IMG/VR virus record: IMGVR_UViG_3300035180_000411
Coordinates: 1 to 58,106 of that record
Reading direction: 5' to 3' (one strand)
Source: a virus
Lineage: Duplodnaviria > Caudoviricetes
Length of the DNA stretch: 58,106 bases
Below the pieces are notes generated by a model. The model was not told where the DNA came from. It did not search any database and was given only the letters and a program-made list of their open reading frames with translations. Shown in pieces: positions 18,840-48,954 of this stretch; position 1 is the stretch's first letter, and each line of letters begins with the position of its first letter. Made by a program: the position numbers and the translations under genes.

Positions 18840-21800
18840 ATGGGTGACTGGACGGATGCGTACCTTAAGCCTGCGGCCACTAATGACGCGCCTGCCGGAG
18901 ACTGGACGGATGCGTATCTTAAGCCTGCGGCTACCAAGGTAGGTGCGTTATCCGACATCGCGCAGGCAGTTCCCGCTGAAGGTCGGCGCCTTGGAAGGTC
19001 AGTTCTAAATTTAGGCGCATCGCTGGGCGGCGCGCTCGGTCTGGTGAGCGACGATACCGCTGCGGGTATCGTTCACGACAACATGAAGGCTAATGAGGCG
19101 GACAACTACCAGGCGAGAACCACAGCAGGCAAGGTCGCTCAGGGGCTAACTCACATGGCCCCGGCTATTGCGCTGGGTATTGCCAACCCCATAGCGGGTC
19201 TAGGTGCTTTTGCCGCACAGGGTGCGTGGGATGCTGGAACCGGCGCCATCGACCAAGGTGACAGCTTGCGTAATGCCCAGATCAAGGCTGTCGGGCAAGG
19301 TGCGCTAAACTCAGCACTGGGTGAAGTCGTAGGTGGTAGCGGAAACGCGGTTCTGTCCAAGCTCCCATATGTCGGTAATGTATTTGCTCCGGCTGCAGCG
19401 GATACGGCTGGCGCGATAGGTAAGCGGATGGTTCAGGGCGCCGGGACTATGGCGGCTTTCAAACCCGCTGGTACAGCCATTGACTACGCGGCAGACATGG
19501 CTACTGGCGAGAATAACGGCCAGCAACGTGACTGGTTTCCTAATGTGGCTGACCTGGCTACAGGTGCCTTGATGGGCGTGCCGCACGCTGCGATGGAGTA
19601 CCGTGCCCGTAATAACGTACCTACCGGCGTGACACCGCTGGCGGACGGCTCATCGATCATGACGCATGAAAACGGTTCGCTGTTTTCATCCCCTACAGCG
19701 TCTGACGCATTTATCAAGGTTAACGGGCTGAGTGCCGCGGAGTCTGTCCCCGTCACCGAAAGGATGTTCGACCCCGAAGCCAAAACCGATAAGATAGTCG
19801 GCTACGGTGTACGGGTTGAAGCTACTCCAGCCATCCCCACGCCGGTGCCACCGGAAACCATCGTTCCACCAGAGTTGCAGCCGAAGGACTTGGTTGCTGG
19901 TACTGATACACAGAATCCCGAGCCGACGCCATCTGAGCCTATCGTTCCGCCGGAGGCGCGACCCGTGAGTGCTAACGTACCCGGCACCCCTGGGTTCGAC
20001 ATGGCTCGTTACATGGCCGACATAATACATGGTGAACGTACCCAAGCCCCCGCGCAGCCTGTAGTATCAGATATTCCGCCGGAGCTACAGCCGAAAGACT
20101 TGGTTGCGCCAAAGGTGTCCACAGCAGAGAAGACAGAACCCGCCACGGTTCAACCGGAATCACCCGCACCAGGCGAGGTCATCGCATCACCCGCAGCACA
20201 GCCGGTTGCTGCTGCGGAATCACCTGCGCCCGCTATCTCCCCGCTGTTCGAAGATATGGGCATCAAACCGAACAAGAAGAACGCTGACATCGTAGCCCGC
20301 GCCGATGCGCTACGGGCGAGTAACCCGGAGGTAGACCTTACCGACGTAGGCGTAGCATTGGCGAAGTACAAGTATGGTGCGGCGGAAAAAGCGTTGCGCG
20401 AACTGGAGGAACAAACCGCAGAGGAAGCACCTGTAGAAGCACCCGCAGAAGCACCCGCAGAAGCACCCGCAGAAGCACCCGCAGAAGCACCTGTAGAAGC
20501 ACCGGCAGAAGCACCTTCACCTAAAGACATGGTAGAACAACCTACAGTGAATCCGCCATCTGCGATCGACCAGGCTAGTCAAACCGGCGACCTTGACGCA
20601 TATACAGGAAGACAGGTGAAGGTAGGCAAAGAGCTGATCACTATTCCAAAACTTCCTCCAGTGCAGCAGAAAGTATTTAACTTACTCGACCGGGCTAGTC
20701 AAACCGGCGACCTTGACGCATATATGGGAAGCTACGAGAAGGTAGGCAAAGAACTGAACTTGGCTCGTGGTTCTGTCCTAAAGGCCATGCAAGGAATGCG
20801 GAAGGCTATCAGCAAGGCGTCGGGTATGGATGTCCCGCAATATCTGGATACGCTTAATAAAGCCAATCGTAGCGTTGAGAAGACCGATGAGGAGCTCTTC
20901 GGACAAAGCCCGGATAAGCAGCGCTCGGTCGTAGATACATCAGAACTGTATGGTGGCTCTGACGCTGGTCATGACGATAAATCCATAGGTATCATTAACA
21001 GCGCAGGTGGTTCGCGGGGCAAGACGAGTGGCTCCTTGGATATGAAAGCGGCGCAACAAGTACGCCGTGCCGTAGAAGCCTACCCGCCGGAAGCACGTGA
21101 AGCGCTGCAGAATAGACTGTCTGATCTGGGCGAAGACTATAAAGATTTTAGCAATGAGGAACGCCTGCATTTGCTGGGGGCTTCGAGTGACCACGACATT
21201 ACGCATGATGACATAGATGAAGCACGCCACCTTAGTCGGGGCACGCGCGGGGAAGACACAGACGATGGTACGTACCAATCCGCGACCGAAGCCGCTGCGG
21301 AAGACCAGGCAACGTTGAAACGAGAAGCCGCTGCGAAGGCTGAACACGCGGAAATGCTACGTGAAGTAGCTGATGACTATAATGAGAGCCTGCAGGAAGG
21401 GGATGTTCCATTCGAGCAACTACCACGGCGCCTGCAAGACCTTTACATTGATGCATTTGAGGATCACCGTAACGGCGACCTCACTGCGCAGGAGTTCATG
21501 CGCAAGTTTTCGGAGATAGCAGATGAAGCCAAATACCAAGCAACTGTTGAAAGAGGAAGCCTGGGCCAAGTTCAAGCAGGAGTTCCAGACAGCGGTACGG
21601 AAAATGGGCAAAAACAGCCAACCGGCGTCGCCGAACAGCCTGCCGCCGGGCGAGGAAGTGAAACAAAATACGCCGGCGAGGCGGTAGCCCCCACCGGCCA
21701 GCGTGCCGCTGAGATGGAGAGTAACCTGCGCAGCGCGTTCTCCAGCCCGTATTTCTTCGACCGCGCAGTGGGTATCGCGCAGGATGTGTCGAGCTTGCCG

Positions 21801-24800
21801 GAAGGTGCGCGTCGGGACGTAATGAAAGCCCAGTCGTCCGGCGGCAAAGTGAAAGGATTCTATGACCCCAAGACCAACAAAGTTTGGCTGATCGCCGATA
21901 ATATACCGAAGGGCGCTGAACTGTCCACGTTACTGCACGAAGTCGGCGTGCATATGGGTATGAAGAATTTACTCGGCGATAGAAACTACGCCCGTCTGGT
22001 GGAGCAGGTTAAGCAGTTTGCAGAGCGAGACGACGGGGGCTTGGAATCAGAACTGGCAAAAACTGCCTTGCGCCGGGTTCTGGCTGCGGAAAAATACCTG
22101 GGCAAAGAATATGGGGACAAAAGTTTCGACAGCGAACTGCTGGCGTACTTTACGGAAGAAGCCGTGCGTAGAGGGATCAACCCTACGGCGCTGGATAATT
22201 CTAGCGAGATAGGCAAGTTCTTTGCGACAGTTATGCGCGCAATCAATACAGCGCTACTCAAGCTAGGGATTAAACCAGAAAGCCTTACCGCTAAAAACGT
22301 AGTTGACCTGGCCTACGGCGCAGCGCACAAGGAGTTGAACGCTCCCCGTGAATCTGCTGAACCCATCGAACGGCGCTTCTCCATCGCTGCCGATAAGGAA
22401 GACGATGAAATAATCAAGGCCAACATCGCCAAGGCGCCAGTGGGGCTGCGCAAGAATCTCAACGTCATCATGGATAACGTCAAGTACACGGGTAAATCGT
22501 CGCTACTTGCATCGGGGTTCCTGCATGATGTCGTCCGGGTCGCCAAGAAGTCGCTGCCATCATCGGTAGAGTATTTCAAGAATGTGGAAGAGGGGGCTGC
22601 AACCAAGACTGCCGGAGACAAGGTGATCAACCAGGTTGCGCAAATGTATAACAGGTTGAAAATCCGCGACCGCGAAGTCGTCAATAATTTCCTTAAGGAA
22701 GGGACAATCTCTCAGAAATGGGGCTACCAACCGAGCTGGAAAACGGAGAATGTAGTAGACCGTGCGGCAAAGCGCGAATTTGATGCACTTCCACCCGAAG
22801 CCCAAGCCGTTGTCCAAGTGGTATTTCAACACGGGCACGATACCCTAACGGCGCTACGTGAAAGGTTTAATCAGGAAATACACTCGCAGGCATCGGGCGC
22901 TATAGAAGAAATAGAGCGTGCCGGCGGCGAAGATACAGACGCGCGTATACAGGAGGTAATTAAAGCTCGGGATGCAGCGCTTGAAAAAGTCGCTAAAGAT
23001 TTTCCAGAGCTAGCTGGCCCCTATGCCCCCCTTATGCGCTTCGGCGATTTTATGGTGGTAGCTACCTCAAAAGAATACCGCGAAGCCAGGGACGGCTCCC
23101 CTGAAAAAGAAGCCATGAAATCTGACCCGAATCATCGCCAAGTAATAGGGGCAGACAGCATCGGCGAAGCAAACCAGCTCGCAAAGGAAGTGCAGGAGGC
23201 GTATCCGCACATGCGCGCCGAAGCCTTCGAAAAGGAATACTACGCCAAGGCGCTACAAGAAGCTCCGTTCGCCACCATTGAGCGTATGAAGGAAATGGCC
23301 AAGGGGAATCTGGGGGATGACGCCAGCCCTGAGACGGTTAAGGCTATAGACGACTCGCTTACTCAGCTATATATCTCGTCACTGGCGGACACCAGTGCCA
23401 TGCACTCACGCACAAGGCGTACAAATACTGCTGGCGCAAGTGACGATATGATGCGGGCGTTTATCAGCAGGGGCCACTCCAATGCTCACCTGCTGGCTCT
23501 GCTGGATCATAACGCTGAAATTCAGCGGGCCATCACCAAGATGCGCAATGAGGCACACTCTGGAGTGGACTCTGAGGGAAACCAACTGCCCGGCACTAAG
23601 AGCGAGCGCAGACAGTACCTGAACGAGTTGCTAAAGCGGCGCGCGCTATCGTCGATATATTCAGCTAGTCCGTGGACCCACAAGTTTATGCAGCTTACCG
23701 CAACGTGGAAGGTACTAACTTCCCCAGCGTTTTACTTGCAGACTTCCACTGAACCGTTCATGGTAATGCGTCCGGTACTCGCTGGTAAGTTTGGCAATGC
23801 TAAATCGTTCACGACGATGCTTAAAGCATTCAAGGATGCTGCTGCGTTTGTTGCATCGCACCGCCCGGATGAGGCGGTAGATGTTTCCCGCTGGACCAAG
23901 TCCTCGGGCCGCGGCGCACGTAATGGGGATATGCTAAAGGCGCTGGACCGTAGGGGGCGCATCGACCTTGGCCAATTGTCTGATTTTGGCAATACCGACA
24001 TTACACACGGAAACCCTGTAAGCGCTGCGTTCAACCTTGTGATGTCCAAAATCAATCGCGTCGCTACCTCGATGGAAGCGTCTAACCGTATTACATCGGC
24101 GAACGCAGCATATACATTGGCTTATGAGCATGCATTAGACAACCTCAAAATGGCGCCAAAGGCTGCGCACGACTACGCAGTCGATTACGCGGACCAGACC
24201 GTACTCGACACGCATGGTAGCTACGACGCCTTTAACGCCCCGCGAATCATGATGCAGGCGAACTCCCCCGGACTCCCTGTAGCGCTGCTTGCGCAATTCC
24301 GCAAGTTTCAAGTGATGGAAATGTCGCTGTTCTCGCGGTTGGCGTATAACTCATTTAAGCACGCAGACCCGGCTGAGAAACTTATCGCTCGGAAGTCCTT
24401 GGCATATATGCTCGGCCAGCAAGCGGTGATAACGGGCGCTCTTGGGCTACCAGGCTATGGGGTAATTTCGACGTTGCTAAACTATATTTTCGGGGACGAA
24501 AAAACTCCAGTAGACGCCGACCTCGCTCTGCGCCGGGCAATAGGCGACAAGGACTTGGCTCACCTGATTATGAATGGAGTGCCTGGACTGCTCGGTATGC
24601 CTGTCACTACCAAGTTGGGCATGGGCGGAATGTTCAGTGTAGTACCTTTCGATAGTGTCGATCTCAAGAATAAAGCAGGATTGGGGGAGACTGTGCTGGC
24701 GATGAGCGGCCCCTTTTTAGGGGGGATGTTGCCGGATGGCGTGAACGCGGTAAACAAACTGCGTCAGGGAGAGTATTACAAAGCTACCGAGATGCTGATG

Positions 24801-25253
24801 CCCTCGTTAGTACGTAACGGCATGAAGTCCTATCGTCAGGCGACGGAAGGCGTAACCAATTCTAAGGGTGATATCCTTTTACGGCCAGACGAACTTTCGG
24901 AAGCGGATACTATGCTGCAGGCGCTTGGATTCAGTTCCACGCACCTTAACGACCGAACATTTACCCAGAACGTCGTCATGGAGTACGAGGAATATTACAA
25001 AGACCGCATGGACCGCGTTACACATAAGTACGCCAAGGCATTCAGAGAGGGGGACACTGAGGGTATGCGGGACGCACGGGATCAGTTTATGGAGTACCAG
25101 AAGGCCCAACGTGAAGCCGGGTTACTGCCTACACCAATTAGCTCAATGTACAGAGCACCTTCGGAACAGATCAAGCGTCAAGCAAAGACCATTGGCGGTG
25201 TACAGTGGGACAAGCACAATCTCAGAGTAGTGAAGGAACTGTCAGGGGAATAG
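18840..25253 (+). CDS. Giant internal virion / polyvalent protein (zincin-like HExxH and PLxRFG motifs)
   Basis: 2137 aa; GFYDP..VWLIADNI...LLHEVGVH...ELLAY metallopeptidase pattern; YAPLMRFGDF; low-complexity linkers. Confidence 0.75.
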   Translation: MGDWTDAYLKPAATNDAPAGDWTDAYLKPAATKVGALSDIAQAVPAEGRRLGRSVLNLGASLGGALGLVSDDTAAGIVHDNMKANEADNYQARTTAGKVAQGLTHMAPAIALGIANPIAGLGAFAAQGAWDAGTGAIDQGDSLRNAQIKAVGQGALNSALGEVVGGSGNAVLSKLPYVGNVFAPAAADTAGAIGKRMVQGAGTMAAFKPAGTAIDYAADMATGENNGQQRDWFPNVADLATGALMGVPHAAMEYRARNNVPTGVTPLADGSSIMTHENGSLFSSPTASDAFIKVNGLSAAESVPVTERMFDPEAKTDKIVGYGVRVEATPAIPTPVPPETIVPPELQPKDLVAGTDTQNPEPTPSEPIVPPEARPVSANVPGTPGFDMARYMADIIHGERTQAPAQPVVSDIPPELQPKDLVAPKVSTAEKTEPATVQPESPAPGEVIASPAAQPVAAAESPAPAISPLFEDMGIKPNKKNADIVARADALRASNPEVDLTDVGVALAKYKYGAAEKALRELEEQTAEEAPVEAPAEAPAEAPAEAPAEAPVEAPAEAPSPKDMVEQPTVNPPSAIDQASQTGDLDAYTGRQVKVGKELITIPKLPPVQQKVFNLLDRASQTGDLDAYMGSYEKVGKELNLARGSVLKAMQGMRKAISKASGMDVPQYLDTLNKANRSVEKTDEELFGQSPDKQRSVVDTSELYGGSDAGHDDKSIGIINSAGGSRGKTSGSLDMKAAQQVRRAVEAYPPEAREALQNRLSDLGEDYKDFSNEERLHLLGASSDHDITHDDIDEARHLSRGTRGEDTDDGTYQSATEAAAEDQATLKREAAAKAEHAEMLREVADDYNESLQEGDVPFEQLPRRLQDLYIDAFEDHRNGDLTAQEFMRKFSEIADEAKYQATVERGSLGQVQAGVPDSGTENGQKQPTGVAEQPAAGRGSETKYAGEAVAPTGQRAAEMESNLRSAFSSPYFFDRAVGIAQDVSSLPEGARRDVMKAQSSGGKVKGFYDPKTNKVWLIADNIPKGAELSTLLHEVGVHMGMKNLLGDRNYARLVEQVKQFAERDDGGLESELAKTALRRVLAAEKYLGKEYGDKSFDSELLAYFTEEAVRRGINPTALDNSSEIGKFFATVMRAINTALLKLGIKPESLTAKNVVDLAYGAAHKELNAPRESAEPIERRFSIAADKEDDEIIKANIAKAPVGLRKNLNVIMDNVKYTGKSSLLASGFLHDVVRVAKKSLPSSVEYFKNVEEGAATKTAGDKVINQVAQMYNRLKIRDREVVNNFLKEGTISQKWGYQPSWKTENVVDRAAKREFDALPPEAQAVVQVVFQHGHDTLTALRERFNQEIHSQASGAIEEIERAGGEDTDARIQEVIKARDAALEKVAKDFPELAGPYAPLMRFGDFMVVATSKEYREARDGSPEKEAMKSDPNHRQVIGADSIGEANQLAKEVQEAYPHMRAEAFEKEYYAKALQEAPFATIERMKEMAKGNLGDDASPETVKAIDDSLTQLYISSLADTSAMHSRTRRTNTAGASDDMMRAFISRGHSNAHLLALLDHNAEIQRAITKMRNEAHSGVDSEGNQLPGTKSERRQYLNELLKRRALSSIYSASPWTHKFMQLTATWKVLTSPAFYLQTSTEPFMVMRPVLAGKFGNAKSFTTMLKAFKDAAAFVASHRPDEAVDVSRWTKSSGRGARNGDMLKALDRRGRIDLGQLSDFGNTDITHGNPVSAAFNLVMSKINRVATSMEASNRITSANAAYTLAYEHALDNLKMAPKAAHDYAVDYADQTVLDTHGSYDAFNAPRIMMQANSPGLPVALLAQFRKFQVMEMSLFSRLAYNSFKHADPAEKLIARKSLAYMLGQQAVITGALGLPGYGVISTLLNYIFGDEKTPVDADLALRRAIGDKDLAHLIMNGVPGLLGMPVTTKLGMGGMFSVVPFDSVDLKNKAGLGETVLAMSGPFLGGMLPDGVNAVNKLRQGEYYKATEMLMPSLVRNGMKSYRQATEGVTNSKGDILLRPDELSEADTMLQALGFSSTHLNDRTFTQNVVMEYEEYYKDRMDRVTHKYAKAFREGDTEGMRDARDQFMEYQKAQREAGLLPTPISSMYRAPSEQIKRQAKTIGGVQWDKHNLRVVKELSGE
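20423..20516 (+). repeat. 12-nt tandem repeat encoding EAP(A/V)
   Basis: gaagcaccYgYa repeated about 8 times. Confidence 0.85.
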
Positions 25254-32371: not shown

Positions 32372-34036
32372 TCACCTATAAGTTCCATTTTGACCCTTCC
32401 AAAATGTGCAATTAGCTTTACCCACCGGGCACCAGCCACAAAGCCCCGACGGCTTGACCTCCCATTTATCGTTCTCGTATGCAATCTCCAGCCGTCTAAC
32501 GCGCGGTAAGAAACCCTGCCAGATGTTACTTACATCTGCCCGCGTAAACTTTTCCTTCGTGATTTTGTTATGCGCCAGCCAGACAAAAGCAGTGCTCACT
32601 TTATCAATTTTCGGCTCGGTGTGAAACACGAATGCAGCGAATAATTTGAGTTGGTCTGAGTCCGCCTTGGGGCGACCCGTATTGTGCGTTGGAATCATAC
32701 GCTCAGTACACAAGAATGTGTGGTCTTTCGAGTCTACTGAGATGCACTGAGTTGGCACCGACGGGATTTCCGCTACTGACACCACGCGCCTGCGCCATGA
32801 CTCTCCTCGGCCCCACTGCGTCGAAACTCTGTCGGCTTTGCGCGGGAGCAGGAAGGGGTTTATTCCGTTTGGTCTAAATGAAATGGGGTACGCAGTAACT
32901 TCCAGACCGAACCCGTGAGCGAGAACTGAGCTTTGCAGCGGACGCTGCCCCAGCGAGCAGAGTAGCTCCATGACAGAATCAGAAAGACCTTTATCCGTCG
33001 TTGTAAATATAGCCTGTTTCCGTACTGAATTTACATTCCCGTCGCCGTCCATAAGCCCTCTCAGCAGGTCAAGTCGCTGCGCATACCCCGCCCTAAGATA
33101 CACTGCGGGTATGTGTTTGTTTTTAAGGAGCCCTGTTTCTCGGAGCAGGGTACGCAAACCCAAAACAGTGTGCACCCTACACTTACCACCTTGCGCCTTG
33201 GCGCTGTAGTCGTGGCTTATATTGAAGCCGCGTCGTTTAATCTCCTCCCACACAAACTCATCGGGTTTAGTAATTTCGGCGCTTGAGTGTTTTCCGTCAG
33301 CCAACCACACACCTAGCACGTAGGGGTCTATAGGTAAAACAGCGTCCGAAAGGCTGAGTGGAGCGGCAACAAGTAATTGTGAGCTATTAACAGGCCCTGT
33401 TCCAATTACGTACCTATTGCCTTGGGTGTCTAGCTCCTTTACGTTAACCACACTTCCGTCGTGGAGCTTCCATAAGTGGTTTTCGTCACAGACCACCGAT
33501 GAGGTGTCGTCAAATGTAATTTTGTAACACTTTATGTTCTTTACTTGTGACTTACCTACTACAGTACACATCTCACCCGATTCTGAAAATAGTGTGTCGC
33601 CAACCCTTACATCTCCCATAGTAGTAAAGCCTTCAGGTGTCGGGAGCTTAGTATCCAGCGCAAGACCTTTCCAGTCTATGAGTACCGCGCGGTCTCCCAA
33701 TAATACACCAGCGTCTACAATACCGCGAACCCATGCATCCGGCGACCGCCACTCAGTCGGCCTGAAATCTGCAGTTAGTGCGTACTGGCGCTCAGTAAAT
33801 ACCTCTCCGCCGTATGACTGGATGCGGTCGCACAGTGGCTGCCACTTCTGCATGGATTCCGGGACTGGCGTTCCGTCCTTGACGCGGTTCTCTAGGGCGG
33901 TATGCACCTCCGTCCCCCACTTGGTAGCCTCGGTGCCGGGTTCCGCGACTTGCTTGGACACCCTTGTGAGGTAGTATCTACGGGGGCAGTTTTCAAAAGC
34001 GGTGAGCGACGAGTAAGACCACGGCGGGATGTTCAA
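32372..34036 (-). CDS. Cas4-like PD-(D/E)XK exonuclease containing an intein
   Basis: WSYSSL..FExCP, GxxVH, RGIVD, IDWK|TG, QLKLFA, LCGWCP; 329-aa insert between K123 and T. Confidence 0.9.
   Translation of the reverse strand: MNIPPWSYSSLTAFENCPRRYYLTRVSKQVAEPGTEATKWGTEVHTALENRVKDGTPVPESMQKWQPLCDRIQSYGGEVFTERQYALTADFRPTEWRSPDAWVRGIVDAGVLLGDRAVLIDWKGLALDTKLPTPEGFTTMGDVRVGDTLFSESGEMCTVVGKSQVKNIKCYKITFDDTSSVVCDENHLWKLHDGSVVNVKELDTQGNRYVIGTGPVNSSQLLVAAPLSLSDAVLPIDPYVLGVWLADGKHSSAEITKPDEFVWEEIKRRGFNISHDYSAKAQGGKCRVHTVLGLRTLLRETGLLKNKHIPAVYLRAGYAQRLDLLRGLMDGDGNVNSVRKQAIFTTTDKGLSDSVMELLCSLGQRPLQSSVLAHGFGLEVTAYPISFRPNGINPFLLPRKADRVSTQWGRGESWRRRVVSVAEIPSVPTQCISVDSKDHTFLCTERMIPTHNTGRPKADSDQLKLFAAFVFHTEPKIDKVSTAFVWLAHNKITKEKFTRADVSNIWQGFLPRVRRLEIAYENDKWEVKPSGLCGWCPVGKANCTFWKGQNGTYR
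32681..33667 (-). mobile_element. Intein (class-3 signature) with LAGLIDADG homing endonuclease
   Basis: Starts GLALDTKLPTPEGFTTMGDV, block B CDENHLW, block F TQCISVD, ends IPTHN/T; endonuclease motifs PYVLGVWLADG and LLRGLMDGDG. Confidence 0.92.
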
Positions 34037-45065: not shown

Positions 45066-45100
45066 AAAAAACAAAGGGGCTATGGTTATCCATAGCCCCT
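45066..45100 (-). terminator. Intrinsic terminator-like hairpin
   Basis: 11-bp stem aggggctatgg/ccatagcccct, then TTGTTTTTT on the minus strand. Confidence 0.65.
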
Positions 45101-45157: not shown

Positions 45158-45721
45158 TTATGCCGCGATGCGAAGAGGCTGAAAGGCCGCTATACGCATT
45201 TCTGTGAGGTATTGCGCCAAGGCCAGCGCTTCCTCTTCGCTGGTTTCAATCAGTTCACCCTTCACGACGAGTCCGTACAGTACCGGATTAGCCGTTACAT
45301 ATTCGCCTTCGATAACTTCTGGTTCGGATTCCACGGGTTCAGCCACCGGCGCGGACTCCGCAACAGGCGCGGGTTTTGCGGCGGCCTTCCTTGCCGCTCG
45401 TTGTTCCTTCTGGATTCTCCGAACTTCAGCTTGTGCCGCGAATACTGCCGCCGTCATTGCCTGTGCCATGTTCTCGGCACGGGCTTCAGTCATGGAGAGG
45501 TCGCGTTTTCCCGTATTCATCGGCAGCTTTTTCAGCTTCTCCCCAAGCCAAGCCGGCGCGGCCTCAACCAATTGCGCTTTAAGATTCACCCGCGCGCCAT
45601 CCACCACCCGGCCATTCCTGTGATACTGGATCAGCACGTATGCTACAGCTTCCTGTACTGCTTCCTGCAATGCCTCATCAGATTTTTTAATAGCGGCCAG
45701 CAATTGATTAAACGATTTCAT
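45158..45721 (-). CDS. Hypothetical early protein (helical, Ala/Glu-rich)
   Basis: GGGAG SD; 187 aa. Confidence 0.65.
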   Translation of the reverse strand: MKSFNQLLAAIKKSDEALQEAVQEAVAYVLIQYHRNGRVVDGARVNLKAQLVEAAPAWLGEKLKKLPMNTGKRDLSMTEARAENMAQAMTAAVFAAQAEVRRIQKEQRAARKAAAKPAPVAESAPVAEPVESEPEVIEGEYVTANPVLYGLVVKGELIETSEEEALALAQYLTEMRIAAFQPLRIAA

Positions 45722-45755
45722 GATTTTTCTCCCAAGTAATTAACTAAACAAAGAA

Positions 45756-45786: not shown

Positions 45787-46140
45787 TTACACGGCAGGGA
45801 TAAACCCTGCACGTTTTGCCTTCTTCCCCTTTTTTTGGGTGGAGAAAGCAAAGACTGGTTCCATCCCCCCGCGCTTCAGGTCCCTAATCAACGCGGGGAT
45901 AAGCCAAGAAGGCCCATCAATCAGCACTTGGGAAGGTTTTTCACCTTCAAAGCCGTGGTTAATTACATATAAGGCGATGAAGGCAGTAACCGCCGCGCGG
46001 GAATCGATTTCCGCTGGCGACGGGGTTTTATCGAAGGACAGCAGGGCGCGAATCGTGCTATGGTCAGCAGCGGGCATGTCAACCACTCCCGCTTTAACTT
46101 GTTCAGGCGTGGCCTTGCGGGATGTCAGATTCAAAATCAT
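45787..46140 (-). CDS. First early gene; resembles Csx20/Crn1-like (minimal CARF) ring-nuclease family
   Basis: ILNLT..ATPEQ..AGVVD, VLIDGPSWL, G..PVFAFS pattern; recognised from memory only. Confidence 0.45.
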   Translation of the reverse strand: MILNLTSRKATPEQVKAGVVDMPAADHSTIRALLSFDKTPSPAEIDSRAAVTAFIALYVINHGFEGEKPSQVLIDGPSWLIPALIRDLKRGGMEPVFAFSTQKKGKKAKRAGFIPAV

Positions 46141-46167
46141 GGCTTGTTCTCCCAAGTAATTAACTAA

Positions 46168-46202
46168 ACAAAAAAGAGGCTACGAAAAAATCCGTAGCCT
46201 CT
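46168..46202 (-). terminator. Intrinsic terminator
   Basis: 10-bp stem agaggctacg/cgtagcctct followed by a T-run on the minus strand. Confidence 0.7.
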
Positions 46203-46800
46203 CAAAATTTCAGTAGCCAATTATTCGCGGACAATTGGCAATACCGTTTAATGCGCCTTATGCAAAGCGCATTAAAGATTCCGGTCTGTTCCGGTCGGAG
46301 TCATTTAGTTAACGATGGCGACAACCACACAATGCCCTAAGTAACAAATACGCCAGACAATACGACGGCATATTTAGATAGCCTAGGCTAATCCTTGTTC
46401 CCTCAAATTTCGCCTTGATTGTTTCGCACACCATGCAAAACTGCATGTAATGCGCCGGCATTGGACTATCCGGAAAAACCTTTACGGCGCCCCGCCTATT
46501 TGCGCGCTCCAGGTGTGCCTGGCGATGCGGGGGACTTGCGCGGTCGAATTTCACGATGACCGGCGTCATTGCCAGTCAAACTTTAACAGGGATTCGACGC
46601 CCTGCAAAATTGCGCGTCCTGCTGCCTTGTCCGTTTTGTTGACCGCTTGCTAACCCGACAACCAATAACGCCTATGATGTTTCAAGCGCTTCCCAGCTGC
46701 CGGTGCTCACTTCTGCCGCGCCCGATTGCGGGGGCGTGGGCTTACGTAAACTGCGGACATGCAGTCTCCTTGACGCGCCAGATTTTGAAAGATCAGGTAC
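46203..46800 (-). ncRNA. Candidate long structured ncRNA or leader
   Basis: No ORF with a clear SD; many local hairpins; closed by a terminator; boxA-like GATCTTTCAAAA near 46783-46794. Confidence 0.3.
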
Positions 46801-47024
46801 TACGTCAAGGGCGCGGCGTCAACCAGCTTCGCTATGCTGTGATTTTTTATGGGTCAAAAGGCGTCAACCCCAGGGTATGGGACCAACCCCGCCCCAGGGG
46901 GGAGGGCCGATTTTACCTATCTCACTCACAGCATCCCCCAAATTTCCACTCCTGTAAGCCACCATACACCCCTCAAAATTTCCCCCACAAAAACCACACC
47001 TGTAACCCCCAATACACTACCCAC

Positions 47025-47053
47025 TTGACACAAATCCCCCCGCCTGATAGCGT
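47025..47053 (+). promoter_or_regulatory. Sigma70-type promoter for the terminase genes
   Basis: TTGACA-17nt-TAGCGT with TGn extension; predicted start site near the ATG at 47060. Confidence 0.6.
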
Positions 47054-47059
47054 TACCCA

Positions 47060-47557
47060 ATGACTACCCAATTACCAGCCATAGCCGATATACCTGCCCT
47101 GTTCATTTTTGACGCAGCCGTAGGGGTATACACGCTCGACGAACTGTGCGCGAAGTACGAATACCCGCCTGAATACGCCGCGTACCTGGAGAAAGAACCT
47201 GCATTCCAGAAGGCGGTGCGCGAGCAGGAAGCGGAACTGGACAAAACAGGGGTATCGTTCAAAATACGCAGCGGCCTGGTAGCTGAAGAGGCCATGATGA
47301 TTATCCGGGACAGGATAAAACGCGGGGATACTCCGACGCCGGTCGTGCTGGATGCGTTCAAGACGATGGCAAAGTTCGCGGGGCGTGAACCAGCCCCTGC
47401 AGGACAGCAGGCAGCCCCCGGTAGCGGGTTCAGTATCACGATCAATATCCCCCAGATGGGCGCCACGCCCGCGTCAACCATGACATTGGATTCGGTTTCT
47501 ACCCGCGTGGCGGACACCGCCGAGGTAGAAGTTGACCCTGAGTACGAATACTACTGA
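47060..47557 (+). CDS. terS: Terminase small subunit
   Basis: Directly upstream of and coupled to TerL; N-terminal HTH-like part, helical core, GFSITINI strand. Confidence 0.75.
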   Translation: MTTQLPAIADIPALFIFDAAVGVYTLDELCAKYEYPPEYAAYLEKEPAFQKAVREQEAELDKTGVSFKIRSGLVAEEAMMIIRDRIKRGDTPTPVVLDAFKTMAKFAGREPAPAGQQAAPGSGFSITINIPQMGATPASTMTLDSVSTRVADTAEVEVDPEYEYY

Positions 47558-48954
47558 TGAGCGGACTGGAATATAACCCGACGCCATCGGTAGTTCCTTA
47601 TTTCCTGAGCGACAAGTTCGTCAATCTCATCGTGGGCCCTGTCGGTAGCTCCAAGACGACGGCCTCTTTGATGAAACTGGTATACGAAGCACAACGCATA
47701 GCTCCGTGCCGTGATGGGATACGCAGGTCGAGAGCGGCCATTATCCGCAACACCTCGCAGATGCTGGACGATAGTACGATCCCAGACTTCATGAAGTTGC
47801 TCGGTGAAGCTGGTGAGTATATGAAAACCGGCAAGCGTATCGTACTCAAGTTTAACGATGTGGAGCTAGAGGTTTTGTTCCGGGGGCTTGACGACCCGGC
47901 GGCAGCGAGACGGCTCCTGAGTACGCAGTTGTCATTCGGTGTCATCGACGAGTTCAGGGAGATTCACCCTGATATTTTCAATGCACTGACGGGTCGCTTG
48001 GGTAGATACCCTGACAAGACGATGAACGGCGTCGGATGCTGCGACGACGCGGGGAAGCAGATACACAAGGTGTGGGCCGCGTCGAACCCGCCGGATATGG
48101 ATTCGTGGTGGGAGAAATATCTCAGCAATCCTCCGGAGAACGCAGCAGTATTTTTCCAGCCCAGCGGGTTGTCGGACGAAGCAGACTGGAAAAAGTTTTT
48201 GCCCGATGGGTATTATGAAAACTTGATGCTTGGCAAGAGCGAGGATTGGATCGAGACCAACGTGCACGGGCGTTTCGGTAGGTCTCTGTCGGGTTTGCCC
48301 GTGTTTCGCTCGTTCGACCAAGACTACCACGTAGCCAAGGCACCCTTGAAGCCGATTATAAGCACGAACCACCCGTTGATTATCGGAGTAGACTTCGGGT
48401 TGACCCCGGCGTGTACCATCAATCAGCAAGATGCACGGGGACGGTTTCTCACGTATCGTTCGCTGGTGTCCGAGGGCATGGGTATTTTGAGGTTCTGCCG
48501 TGAAAAATTGAAACCCATGCTAAATAATGAGTTTCCCGGCCACCCTGTGATTGTAATCGGGGACCCTGCGGGAGTACAGCGCGCGCAGACCGACGAGCGC
48601 AGCGCGTTTGATATCCTCAAGAGCGAGGGATTCACAGCGATAGCGGCCAAGACGAACTCCGTTACTGCGCGAATCGCTGCGGTGGAGAATCTTCTGTCAC
48701 GCCAGATAGACGGAGAAGCTGCTTGGTTGATCGACCCAGGGGCCACTGAGCTCATACGTGCGTTGCGCGGGGGGTATAGGTACCGCGCCAAGACTAATGG
48801 GGAGATGGAGGATAAGCCGGATAAAAACCAGTACAGCCATATCGCTGACGCATGTCAGTACAGCGTATTGCACGTAGACTCCGTGTTCGGCGCAGCCTTG
48901 AAAGCGTCAGCTCGGCGCGAGGTAAAGCGAGCAGTCGCGTTTGGATGGACTTGA
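47557..48954 (+). CDS. terL: Terminase large subunit
   Basis: Walker A GPVGSSKTT, Walker B VIDE, SNPP coupling motif, nuclease GVDFGLTP, DPAG, SHIADACQY. Confidence 0.93.
   Translation: MSGLEYNPTPSVVPYFLSDKFVNLIVGPVGSSKTTASLMKLVYEAQRIAPCRDGIRRSRAAIIRNTSQMLDDSTIPDFMKLLGEAGEYMKTGKRIVLKFNDVELEVLFRGLDDPAAARRLLSTQLSFGVIDEFREIHPDIFNALTGRLGRYPDKTMNGVGCCDDAGKQIHKVWAASNPPDMDSWWEKYLSNPPENAAVFFQPSGLSDEADWKKFLPDGYYENLMLGKSEDWIETNVHGRFGRSLSGLPVFRSFDQDYHVAKAPLKPIISTNHPLIIGVDFGLTPACTINQQDARGRFLTYRSLVSEGMGILRFCREKLKPMLNNEFPGHPVIVIGDPAGVQRAQTDERSAFDILKSEGFTAIAAKTNSVTARIAAVENLLSRQIDGEAAWLIDPGATELIRALRGGYRYRAKTNGEMEDKPDKNQYSHIADACQYSVLHVDSVFGAALKASARREVKRAVAFGWT

Follow-up and report, generated by a model that had tools for sequence, protein, structure and literature searches.

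A divergent, shortened phage relative of the MJ1673/Csx20 family as a candidate counter-defence protein

To our knowledge, the viral inhibitors of type III CRISPR signalling described so far are few. Among the systems closest to the phage protein described here, Csx20 is published as a CARF-like Rossmann domain protein which degrades cA4 and, at high enzyme concentration, also cA3, and it is counted in the same source in four of 28,114 phage genomes (PMC12409355). The prediction of Csx20 as a ring nuclease was based on His, Arg and Asp/Glu residues (PMC8284326), while MJ_1673 is listed as type III-A-associated (PMC3973734). Homologues of csx20 are also reported within Aca14-regulated anti-CRISPR loci (bioRxiv 10.64898/2026.07.27.740549). 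In the accessible parts of these sources, the phage-borne Csx20 homologues appear only as counts or candidates (PMC12409355; bioRxiv 10.64898/2026.07.27.740549).

The DNA analysed here (the window) comprises 58,106 bases, has repeats at its termini and represents a complete virus record. On its minus strand, translation of the gene given in Table 1 yields P0001 (the target), a protein of 117 aa whose last codon is succeeded by a stop, and in which the strings ILNLTSRKATPEQVKAGVVD and VLIDGPSWLIPALIRDLKRGGMEPVFAFS and the Lys-rich tail quoted in a preliminary description of the locus are all present. An alternative, longer frame with a TTG start reaches 46155 in the ORF list. Translation probably begins at the ATG at 46140, since the sequence GGGAGAA at 46147-46153, six bases 5' of this codon, provides a ribosome-binding site, the relatives share the start at M-I-L-N-L-T with the target, and the homologue on a related viral contig (L002), which is 86% identical, has the same start position. 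The TTG start was dropped because the relatives begin at the ATG, and a spurious ORF was similarly dropped in view of the homologues and the selection signal. Between the target and the L002 gene a hand count gave 19 synonymous and 14 non-synonymous codon changes and one codon deletion; by this comparison of two sequences the gene is under purifying selection, with a dN/dS of roughly 0.2-0.3 by rough reckoning. Codons 70-97 are identical to those of L002 at the DNA level. This 87-base block (45848-45934) contains no substitution, while the 5' half of the gene has accumulated numerous changes, both synonymous and non-synonymous, a pattern which suggests mosaic exchange or very strong constraint.

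Direct scans with the target found no NCBIfam family at E<=1, no PADLOC match and a single PHROGs match at E 0.055, and a Pfam copy without PF27247 gave no family at E<=1; the protein itself does not reach the curated Csx20 threshold (NF040559 / PF27247). A phmmer search of 1.84 billion representatives returned 795 cluster representatives at E<=1e-3, of which 35 reached E<=1e-10, while in a word-indexed search eight of 13 candidates, the target included, scored E<=0.001. The close relatives by identity are P0002 (86%), P0003 (81%) and P0004 (64%); no precomputed Pfam family is recorded for these three or for the target, and P0005-P0008 carry PF27247, which is named 'MJ1673' in the Atlas. All of the best 120 of 2,702 profile matches likewise carry precomputed PF27247. 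All cluster members that were looked up bear the name 'hypothetical protein'. In an Atlas search without PF27247, the only leads were low-share ones (0.80-0.84) to MYG1_exonuc, a family flagged as probably wrong by the tool and set aside. Sequence searches of the PDB with the target and with the family profile gave chance-level matches only.

For comparison at the family level, an alignment of 100 sequences (A1) was assembled from eight word-search sequences and 92 single-domain proteins hand-picked from the 150 phmmer rows listed, with long, tandem and fused proteins left out. The NCBIfam model NF040559 (CAS_Csx20) matches 88 of these 100 sequences at E<=1 (best E 3.5e-14), and does not match the target. 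At E<=0.01 it matches 27 of 34 relatives scanned, often over the full length of the model and always below the 70-bit equivalog cut-off; single domains score 20-48 bits and one tandem protein reaches 66.8 bits. The seven relatives missed are P0002, P0003, P0004, P0024, P0031, P0035 and P0087. The PADLOC Csx20 models match all six canonical relatives tested, and P0004, a member of the target clade, shows a weak match (E 0.012) to the Csx20 part of the PADLOC Csx1-Csx20 fusion model. Of the control genomes, only M. jannaschii matches the Csx20 model with a score above the cut-off. When the target clade (alignment A6, four sequences) was compared by hhalign with the canonical family (A5, 100 sequences, none shared), the two aligned over 116 columns with a probability of 100% and an E-value of 2.4e-42. 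The profile comparison thus places the target firmly in the MJ1673/Csx20 superfamily, below the curated thresholds of Csx20 proper, and the Csx20 resemblance claimed in the preliminary description is upheld. Functional equivalence with Csx20 is not established for the whole branch, because the target has no curated match and the canonical relatives score only 20-67 bits against the 70-bit cut-off. Similarity to Csx15, which had also been suggested, is not supported: one of the 100 relatives matches the Csx15 model (NF040560), at E 0.12, and the target does not.

As shown by P0009, P0013, P0018 and P0036, the domain also occurs in tandem, in proteins of about 300 aa with two copies, and N-terminally in proteins of 610-670 aa, the remainder of which matches no Pfam family. 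Among 23 long or tandem relatives, no informative fused Pfam domain was found except for one DUF1289 fusion. By tblastn of the target, the only cultured-phage homologue is found in Rhodothermus phage RM378, the phage of a thermophile. Its p002 gene (L001 3995-4420), located very close to the left genome end and annotated as hypothetical, codes for a canonical member in which the Q-H and G-G-A-P motifs, the complete hairpin and the second His are all retained.

The motifs given in the preliminary description correspond to the family consensus, namely strand-N-L-T-Q-H-x-A-T-x-E-Q, M-I-G-G-A-P and P-V-Y-A-F-S. Column counts over the 100 relatives in A1 show that N4 (100), T6 (100), Q14 (99), G18 (98), G76 (97), R48 (91) and D21 (86) are kept in the target, while six further consensus residues are replaced, as Q7S (91), H8R (89), G75D (83), A77P (88), R102Q (85) and H110R (88, the numbers giving the relatives out of 100 with the consensus residue). 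The full strand-1 loop motif N-L-T-Q-H is therefore not found in the target, in which N4 and T6 are present and the Gln-His pair reads Ser-Arg, as had been pointed out for the His site. The long C-terminal hairpin of the family, with its conserved Arg (F-S-x-R) and His (F-x-H-x-G-F), is likewise not present in that form. The hairpin tip of most relatives, E-x-x-x-x-D-G-x-V-x-K-x-x-V-F, is missing over about 13 residues and a Lys-rich loop stands in its place, which agrees with the short, Lys-rich C-terminal arm described earlier. In the structural models the hairpin strands span residues 94-101 and 109-115 in the target versus 92-106 and 112-125 in the canonical member P0131 (pLDDT 97.5). Hairpin-less variants have arisen repeatedly elsewhere in the family (P0024, P0035, P0129, P0133 and P0154). 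Within the target clade the residues at the two His positions are R/R in P0001 and P0002, R/H in P0003 and H/Q in P0004, and this drift suggests a relaxed constraint on them.

The AlphaFold2 model of the target, built with the 100-row alignment, has a mean pLDDT of 95.2 and a pTM of 0.87 and, together with the translation, supports the 117-aa alpha/beta protein described earlier. It comprises strands at residues 2-4, 19-21, 71-73, 94-101 and 109-115 and helices at 12-16, 24-33, 42-63 and 81-90, and confidence drops only in the Lys-rich loop (residues 101-110), where the pLDDT is about 77. A Foldseek comparison with known CARF structures had been put forward as a check on the assignment. In this comparison, CARF and SAVED sensors and Crn1 are among the weak PDB rows, and nothing was found at E<=1e-3. 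The resemblance to Crn1 is thereby reduced to a weak fold similarity (8htw_B, E 0.13, TM 0.44), and Crn1 is absent from the 50 best rows of the VIA fold search. In the latter, racemase-type Rossmann-like domains rank first, and the top fold neighbours include the CBASS SAVED sensors Cap5, Cap14 and 3TM-SAVED. The canonical member P0131 shows the same Foldseek behaviour as the target. In BFVD, two uncharacterised phage proteins (TM 0.84 and 0.80, 33-34% identity) were retrieved, both of them family members. The predicted fold is thus compatible with a CARF-like Rossmann domain, for which the fold evidence alone is not specific. A homodimer prediction with two copies and alignment A1 scored 0.01 against a mark of 0.42, run without controls, and is uninformative on dimerisation either way.

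As noted in the preliminary description, the target gene is the first of the leftward arm. It is the first ORF of a minus-strand, replication-side block which extends from 46140 down to 25283 and contains small genes without known function followed by those for dCMP deaminase, DNA polymerase, helicase and primase/helicase, while the plus-strand genes from 47060 onward diverge rightward and code for terminase, structural and lysis proteins. The target gene would probably be expressed early. The first two leftward genes share a cassette of a GC-rich terminator-like hairpin with a T-run and an identical 26-nt leader ending in GGGAGAA (Table 1); the 26-mer occurs in two copies in the window versus zero expected. 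The hairpin-leader cassettes could be sites of graded termination, attenuation or RNA processing. The alignment with L002 over 46130-47070, which takes in the hairpin, the leader and a short part of each flanking gene, shows 91% identity. A simple consensus scan of the non-coding region between the divergent blocks found no minus-strand sigma-70 site. This region is rich in G-runs and TTGAC-type repeats, and in L002 it carries a 33-base insertion repeating the neighbouring sequence. An 86-aa ORF within it (46309-46569) is probably not coding, since its frame is broken in L002.

Table 1. Features of the target gene and its surroundings in the 58,106-base window
Feature	Position	Strand	Basis
Non-coding stretch (about 850 bp) separating the divergent blocks; presumed site of leftward promoter(s)	46204..47059	.	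Within the stretch aligned to L002
Terminator-like stem-loop, 13 pairs, with T-run, directly 5' of the leader	46174..46203	-	Kept in L002
Leader, 26 nt, ending in the GGGAGAA ribosome-binding site	46147..46172	-	Read from sequence
CDS, 117-aa Csx20/MJ1673-like protein (P0001, target)	45787..46140	-	Stop 45787-45789; ATG 46138-46140
Terminator-like stem-loop, 10 pairs, just 3' of the stop codon	45756..45779	-	Hairpin scan
Second copy of the 26-nt leader, before the next gene	45727..45752	-	Identical 26-mer
Next gene, 187 aa, without family match	45158-45721	-	Pfam, PHROGs and NCBIfam scans
Third terminator-like hairpin, after the second gene	45075-45100	-	Hairpin scan

The closest cultured relatives of the virus by major capsid protein are Rhizobium phages (52.5% identity), and a megablast of the 4 kb surrounding the target gene against cultured phages found no match. 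ARAGORN found zero tRNA genes in the window, so that tRNAs give no clue to the host. No cas families are present among the annotated ORFs of the window, none of the neighbours of the target gene in it is a cas, CBASS or known anti-defence gene, and no RHH or HTH regulator gene adjoining the target was recognised in the Pfam, PHROGs and NCBIfam scans. At the end of the structural block, a gene at 18840-25253 (plus strand) codes for a 2,137-aa protein, the C-terminal third of which matches DarB-like anti-restriction PHROGs (E 4e-39) and which may be an injected anti-defence protein. Among the replication genes, a 554-aa protein (32372-34036, minus strand) combines an exonuclease-like N-terminus (residues 2-123) with an ATPase part which matches both 'terminase large subunit' and DnaC-like loader PHROGs; the true terminase is located elsewhere, at 47557-48954.

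With one peptide pattern, 125 confirmed loci coding for relatives were found in IMG/VR, of which 80 were kept, and a further 25 loci were found in species-representative genomes, ten of them in Patescibacteria and three in archaea. Ten neighbourhoods were inspected with hand-chosen ORFs (60 + 42 proteins) and Pfam at E<=1e-4, and none of the ten contains cas genes. In three neighbourhoods on viral contigs, the relative is located beside a terminase and a GIY-YIG-type gene, after a primase gene and among small unknown genes, respectively. Elsewhere, relatives are found in an ICE-like region with ThiF/E2 and DNA ligase genes in Aliidiomarina, directly after Gam in a Mu-like prophage and near ERF and resolvase genes in a Phocaeicola prophage. 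The sampled branch is thus mostly found on phages and mobile elements, away from cas genes; having been seeded from a phage protein, the sample describes a phage-like branch and not all of Csx20. In the Patescibacteria loci L098, L090, L105 and L095, a TrmB-family regulator is encoded within about 2.5 kb in all four, and in two of them, from Saccharibacteria, clpP and the trigger-factor gene enclose an island of small unknown ORFs to which the relative belongs. These Patescibacteria loci may point to a function in the cell itself or to a conserved site of integration. A search with the Csx20 model across 401 genomes of one phylum recovered the seed genome only (1/401). Detectable Cas10 of either type was found in none of five cellular genomes carrying relatives, a tiny sample which includes some incomplete MAGs.

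The target is a phage-encoded, divergent and shortened member of the MJ1673/Csx20 family, and it may be made soon after infection. It would bind the cyclic oligoadenylate produced by the immune system of the host and keep this signal from activating effector proteins, as a form of counter-defence. It would sequester the signal, or cleave it at a low rate or through an altered mechanism, and not act as a fast canonical ring nuclease. Sequestration or slow cleavage is proposed because of the Q7S, H8R, R102Q and H110R replacements and the cutting back of the hairpin arm to a Lys-rich loop. A counter-defence role is consistent with the mobile-element contexts of the relatives, the position at the head of an operon and the published occurrence of csx20 in anti-CRISPR loci (bioRxiv 10.64898/2026.07.27.740549). 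Such a protein, intercepting cyclic oligoadenylates with its catalysis altered, slowed or lost, is put forward tentatively, as possible rather than probable. We infer ligand binding, the identity of the ligand, the loss of catalysis, the early timing and the anti-defence role alike; the loss of catalysis in particular is a guess, and the retained N4 and T6 would leave room for an active enzyme. A further point against sequestration is the published argument that a sponge may fail to cope with the quantity of cOA which type III systems make (PMC13148439).

An enzyme still competent as a cA4 ring nuclease, in which the retained strand-1 loop and the backbone catalyse, the Arg and Lys residues replacing His stabilise the transition state and the signal is rapidly destroyed as by AcrIII-1, is considered unlikely. 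Metal-independent CARF ring nucleases use a Ser or Thr after strand 1, at a position equivalent to the retained T6/N4 loop, and this would suit such an enzyme, as would the invariance of N4 and T6 in all 100 relatives, the DNA-level identity of core residues 70-97 with L002 and the recurrence of hairpin-less variants in a family whose characterised member Csx20 is active (PMC12409355). In the target, however, other residues stand in place of both conserved His residues and of the conserved Gln and Arg, the His positions drift within its clade, and it was on His, Arg and Asp/Glu that the ring-nuclease prediction for Csx20 had been built (PMC8284326). The failure to detect Cas10 in the five relative-carrying genomes was counted against a cA4/type III reading. 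It would be more in keeping with a different nucleotide signal, such as cA3, the cyclic di- or trinucleotides of CBASS or decoy nucleotides of the mCpol type, the remodelled pocket and the Lys-rich loop then representing a change of ligand. The CBASS SAVED sensors among the top fold neighbours, the degradation of cA3 by Csx20 at high enzyme concentration (PMC12409355) and the report that Csx15, a related small CARF protein, bridges CRISPR and CBASS signals (bioRxiv 10.64898/2026.10.26.761840) all point in the same direction. A ligand of this kind is nevertheless very doubtful, given that cA4 is the preferred ligand of those few members of the wider family which have been characterised, and that the five genomes are few and partly incomplete while phage counter-defence need not match the strain carrying it.

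The protein may alternatively have no part in immune signalling, being either a factor which binds nucleotides or proteins and assists phage replication or regulation, or else a tolerated, decaying remnant of a ring nuclease. The loss of conserved polar residues and the truncation of the arm are in keeping with this reading, racemase-type Rossmann-like domains come first in the unbiased fold search, and the window offers no cas, CBASS or known anti-defence neighbours. The TrmB neighbours of the apparently chromosomal Patescibacteria relatives (4/4) and the clpP/trigger-factor site in two loci hint at a cellular role there and speak against counter-defence. Decay is hard to reconcile with the purifying selection relative to L002 and the very confident fold, and the operon-head position, the mobile-element contexts of the relatives and the csx20 genes in anti-CRISPR loci (bioRxiv 10.64898/2026.07.27.740549) fit counter-defence instead, so that a role outside immunity appears somewhat doubtful. 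Counter-defence by interception of cyclic oligoadenylates is the preferred reading here. Taken further, the clade would represent a ring-nuclease fold which a phage has turned into a sponge for cyclic oligoadenylates without catalytic activity, an anti-CRISPR of the 'dead enzyme' type derived from Csx20, and the MJ1673/Csx20 family as a whole would serve mainly in mobile-element counter-defence, with the CRISPR-associated enzymes forming a minority branch. This broader reading, which draws on the thousands of clusters, most of them without cas neighbours in the sampled branch, is improbable as it stands.

Among the papers listed for Csx20/MJ1673 and phage ring nucleases, exclusive of the supplementary phage Csx20 list of PMC12409355, none describes a His-less, truncated phage clade. 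The many unannotated relatives on viral contigs suggest that the published phage counts understate the family. The His-less, truncated clade and its canonical relatives would provide a ready comparison for determining which residues make Csx20 catalytic. The same comparison could show whether sequestering alone defeats cOA-based defence, a matter under dispute in the field (PMC13148439).

Among the known systems, Crn1 (Sso2081) has no sequence match to the target and only the weak Foldseek row mentioned above. With Csx15, there is already an example of a minimal CARF-like protein whose main action is that of a cA4 sponge or slow cleaver, and it is reported as absent from phage genomes (PMC13148439); it has no detectable sequence relation to the target. 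The viral AcrIII-1 relies on a catalytic His, while the target is without both of the family His residues. As proposed for the target, AcrIII-1/Crn2 (DUF1874) is a small viral protein which removes cA4 and thereby disarms type III CRISPR (PMC12409355), but it belongs to a different family, and DUF1874 is not matched by the target in Pfam at E<=1. Csx20 (NF040559; PF27247), the cA4 ring nuclease associated with type III CRISPR, is closest, with full-length homology via the family profile, a length of about 120 aa, the same alpha/beta layout and the common motifs N-terminal strand-N-L-T, T-x-E-Q, G-V-V-D and P-V-(F/Y)-A-F-S. The target differs from Csx20 in missing the curated threshold, in the six replacements Q7S/H8R/G75D/A77P/R102Q/H110R, in the deleted hairpin tip and in being a phage gene away from cas. 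The csx20 genes of phages and mobile elements (PMC12409355), including the csx20-aca14 operons (bioRxiv 10.64898/2026.07.27.740549), differ from the target gene in that the latter has no recognised adjoining RHH/HTH regulator and belongs to a clade without the conserved Gln-His, Arg and His; the two have in common that they are carried by a mobile element, that they open a small operon and that they are proposed to act in counter-defence.
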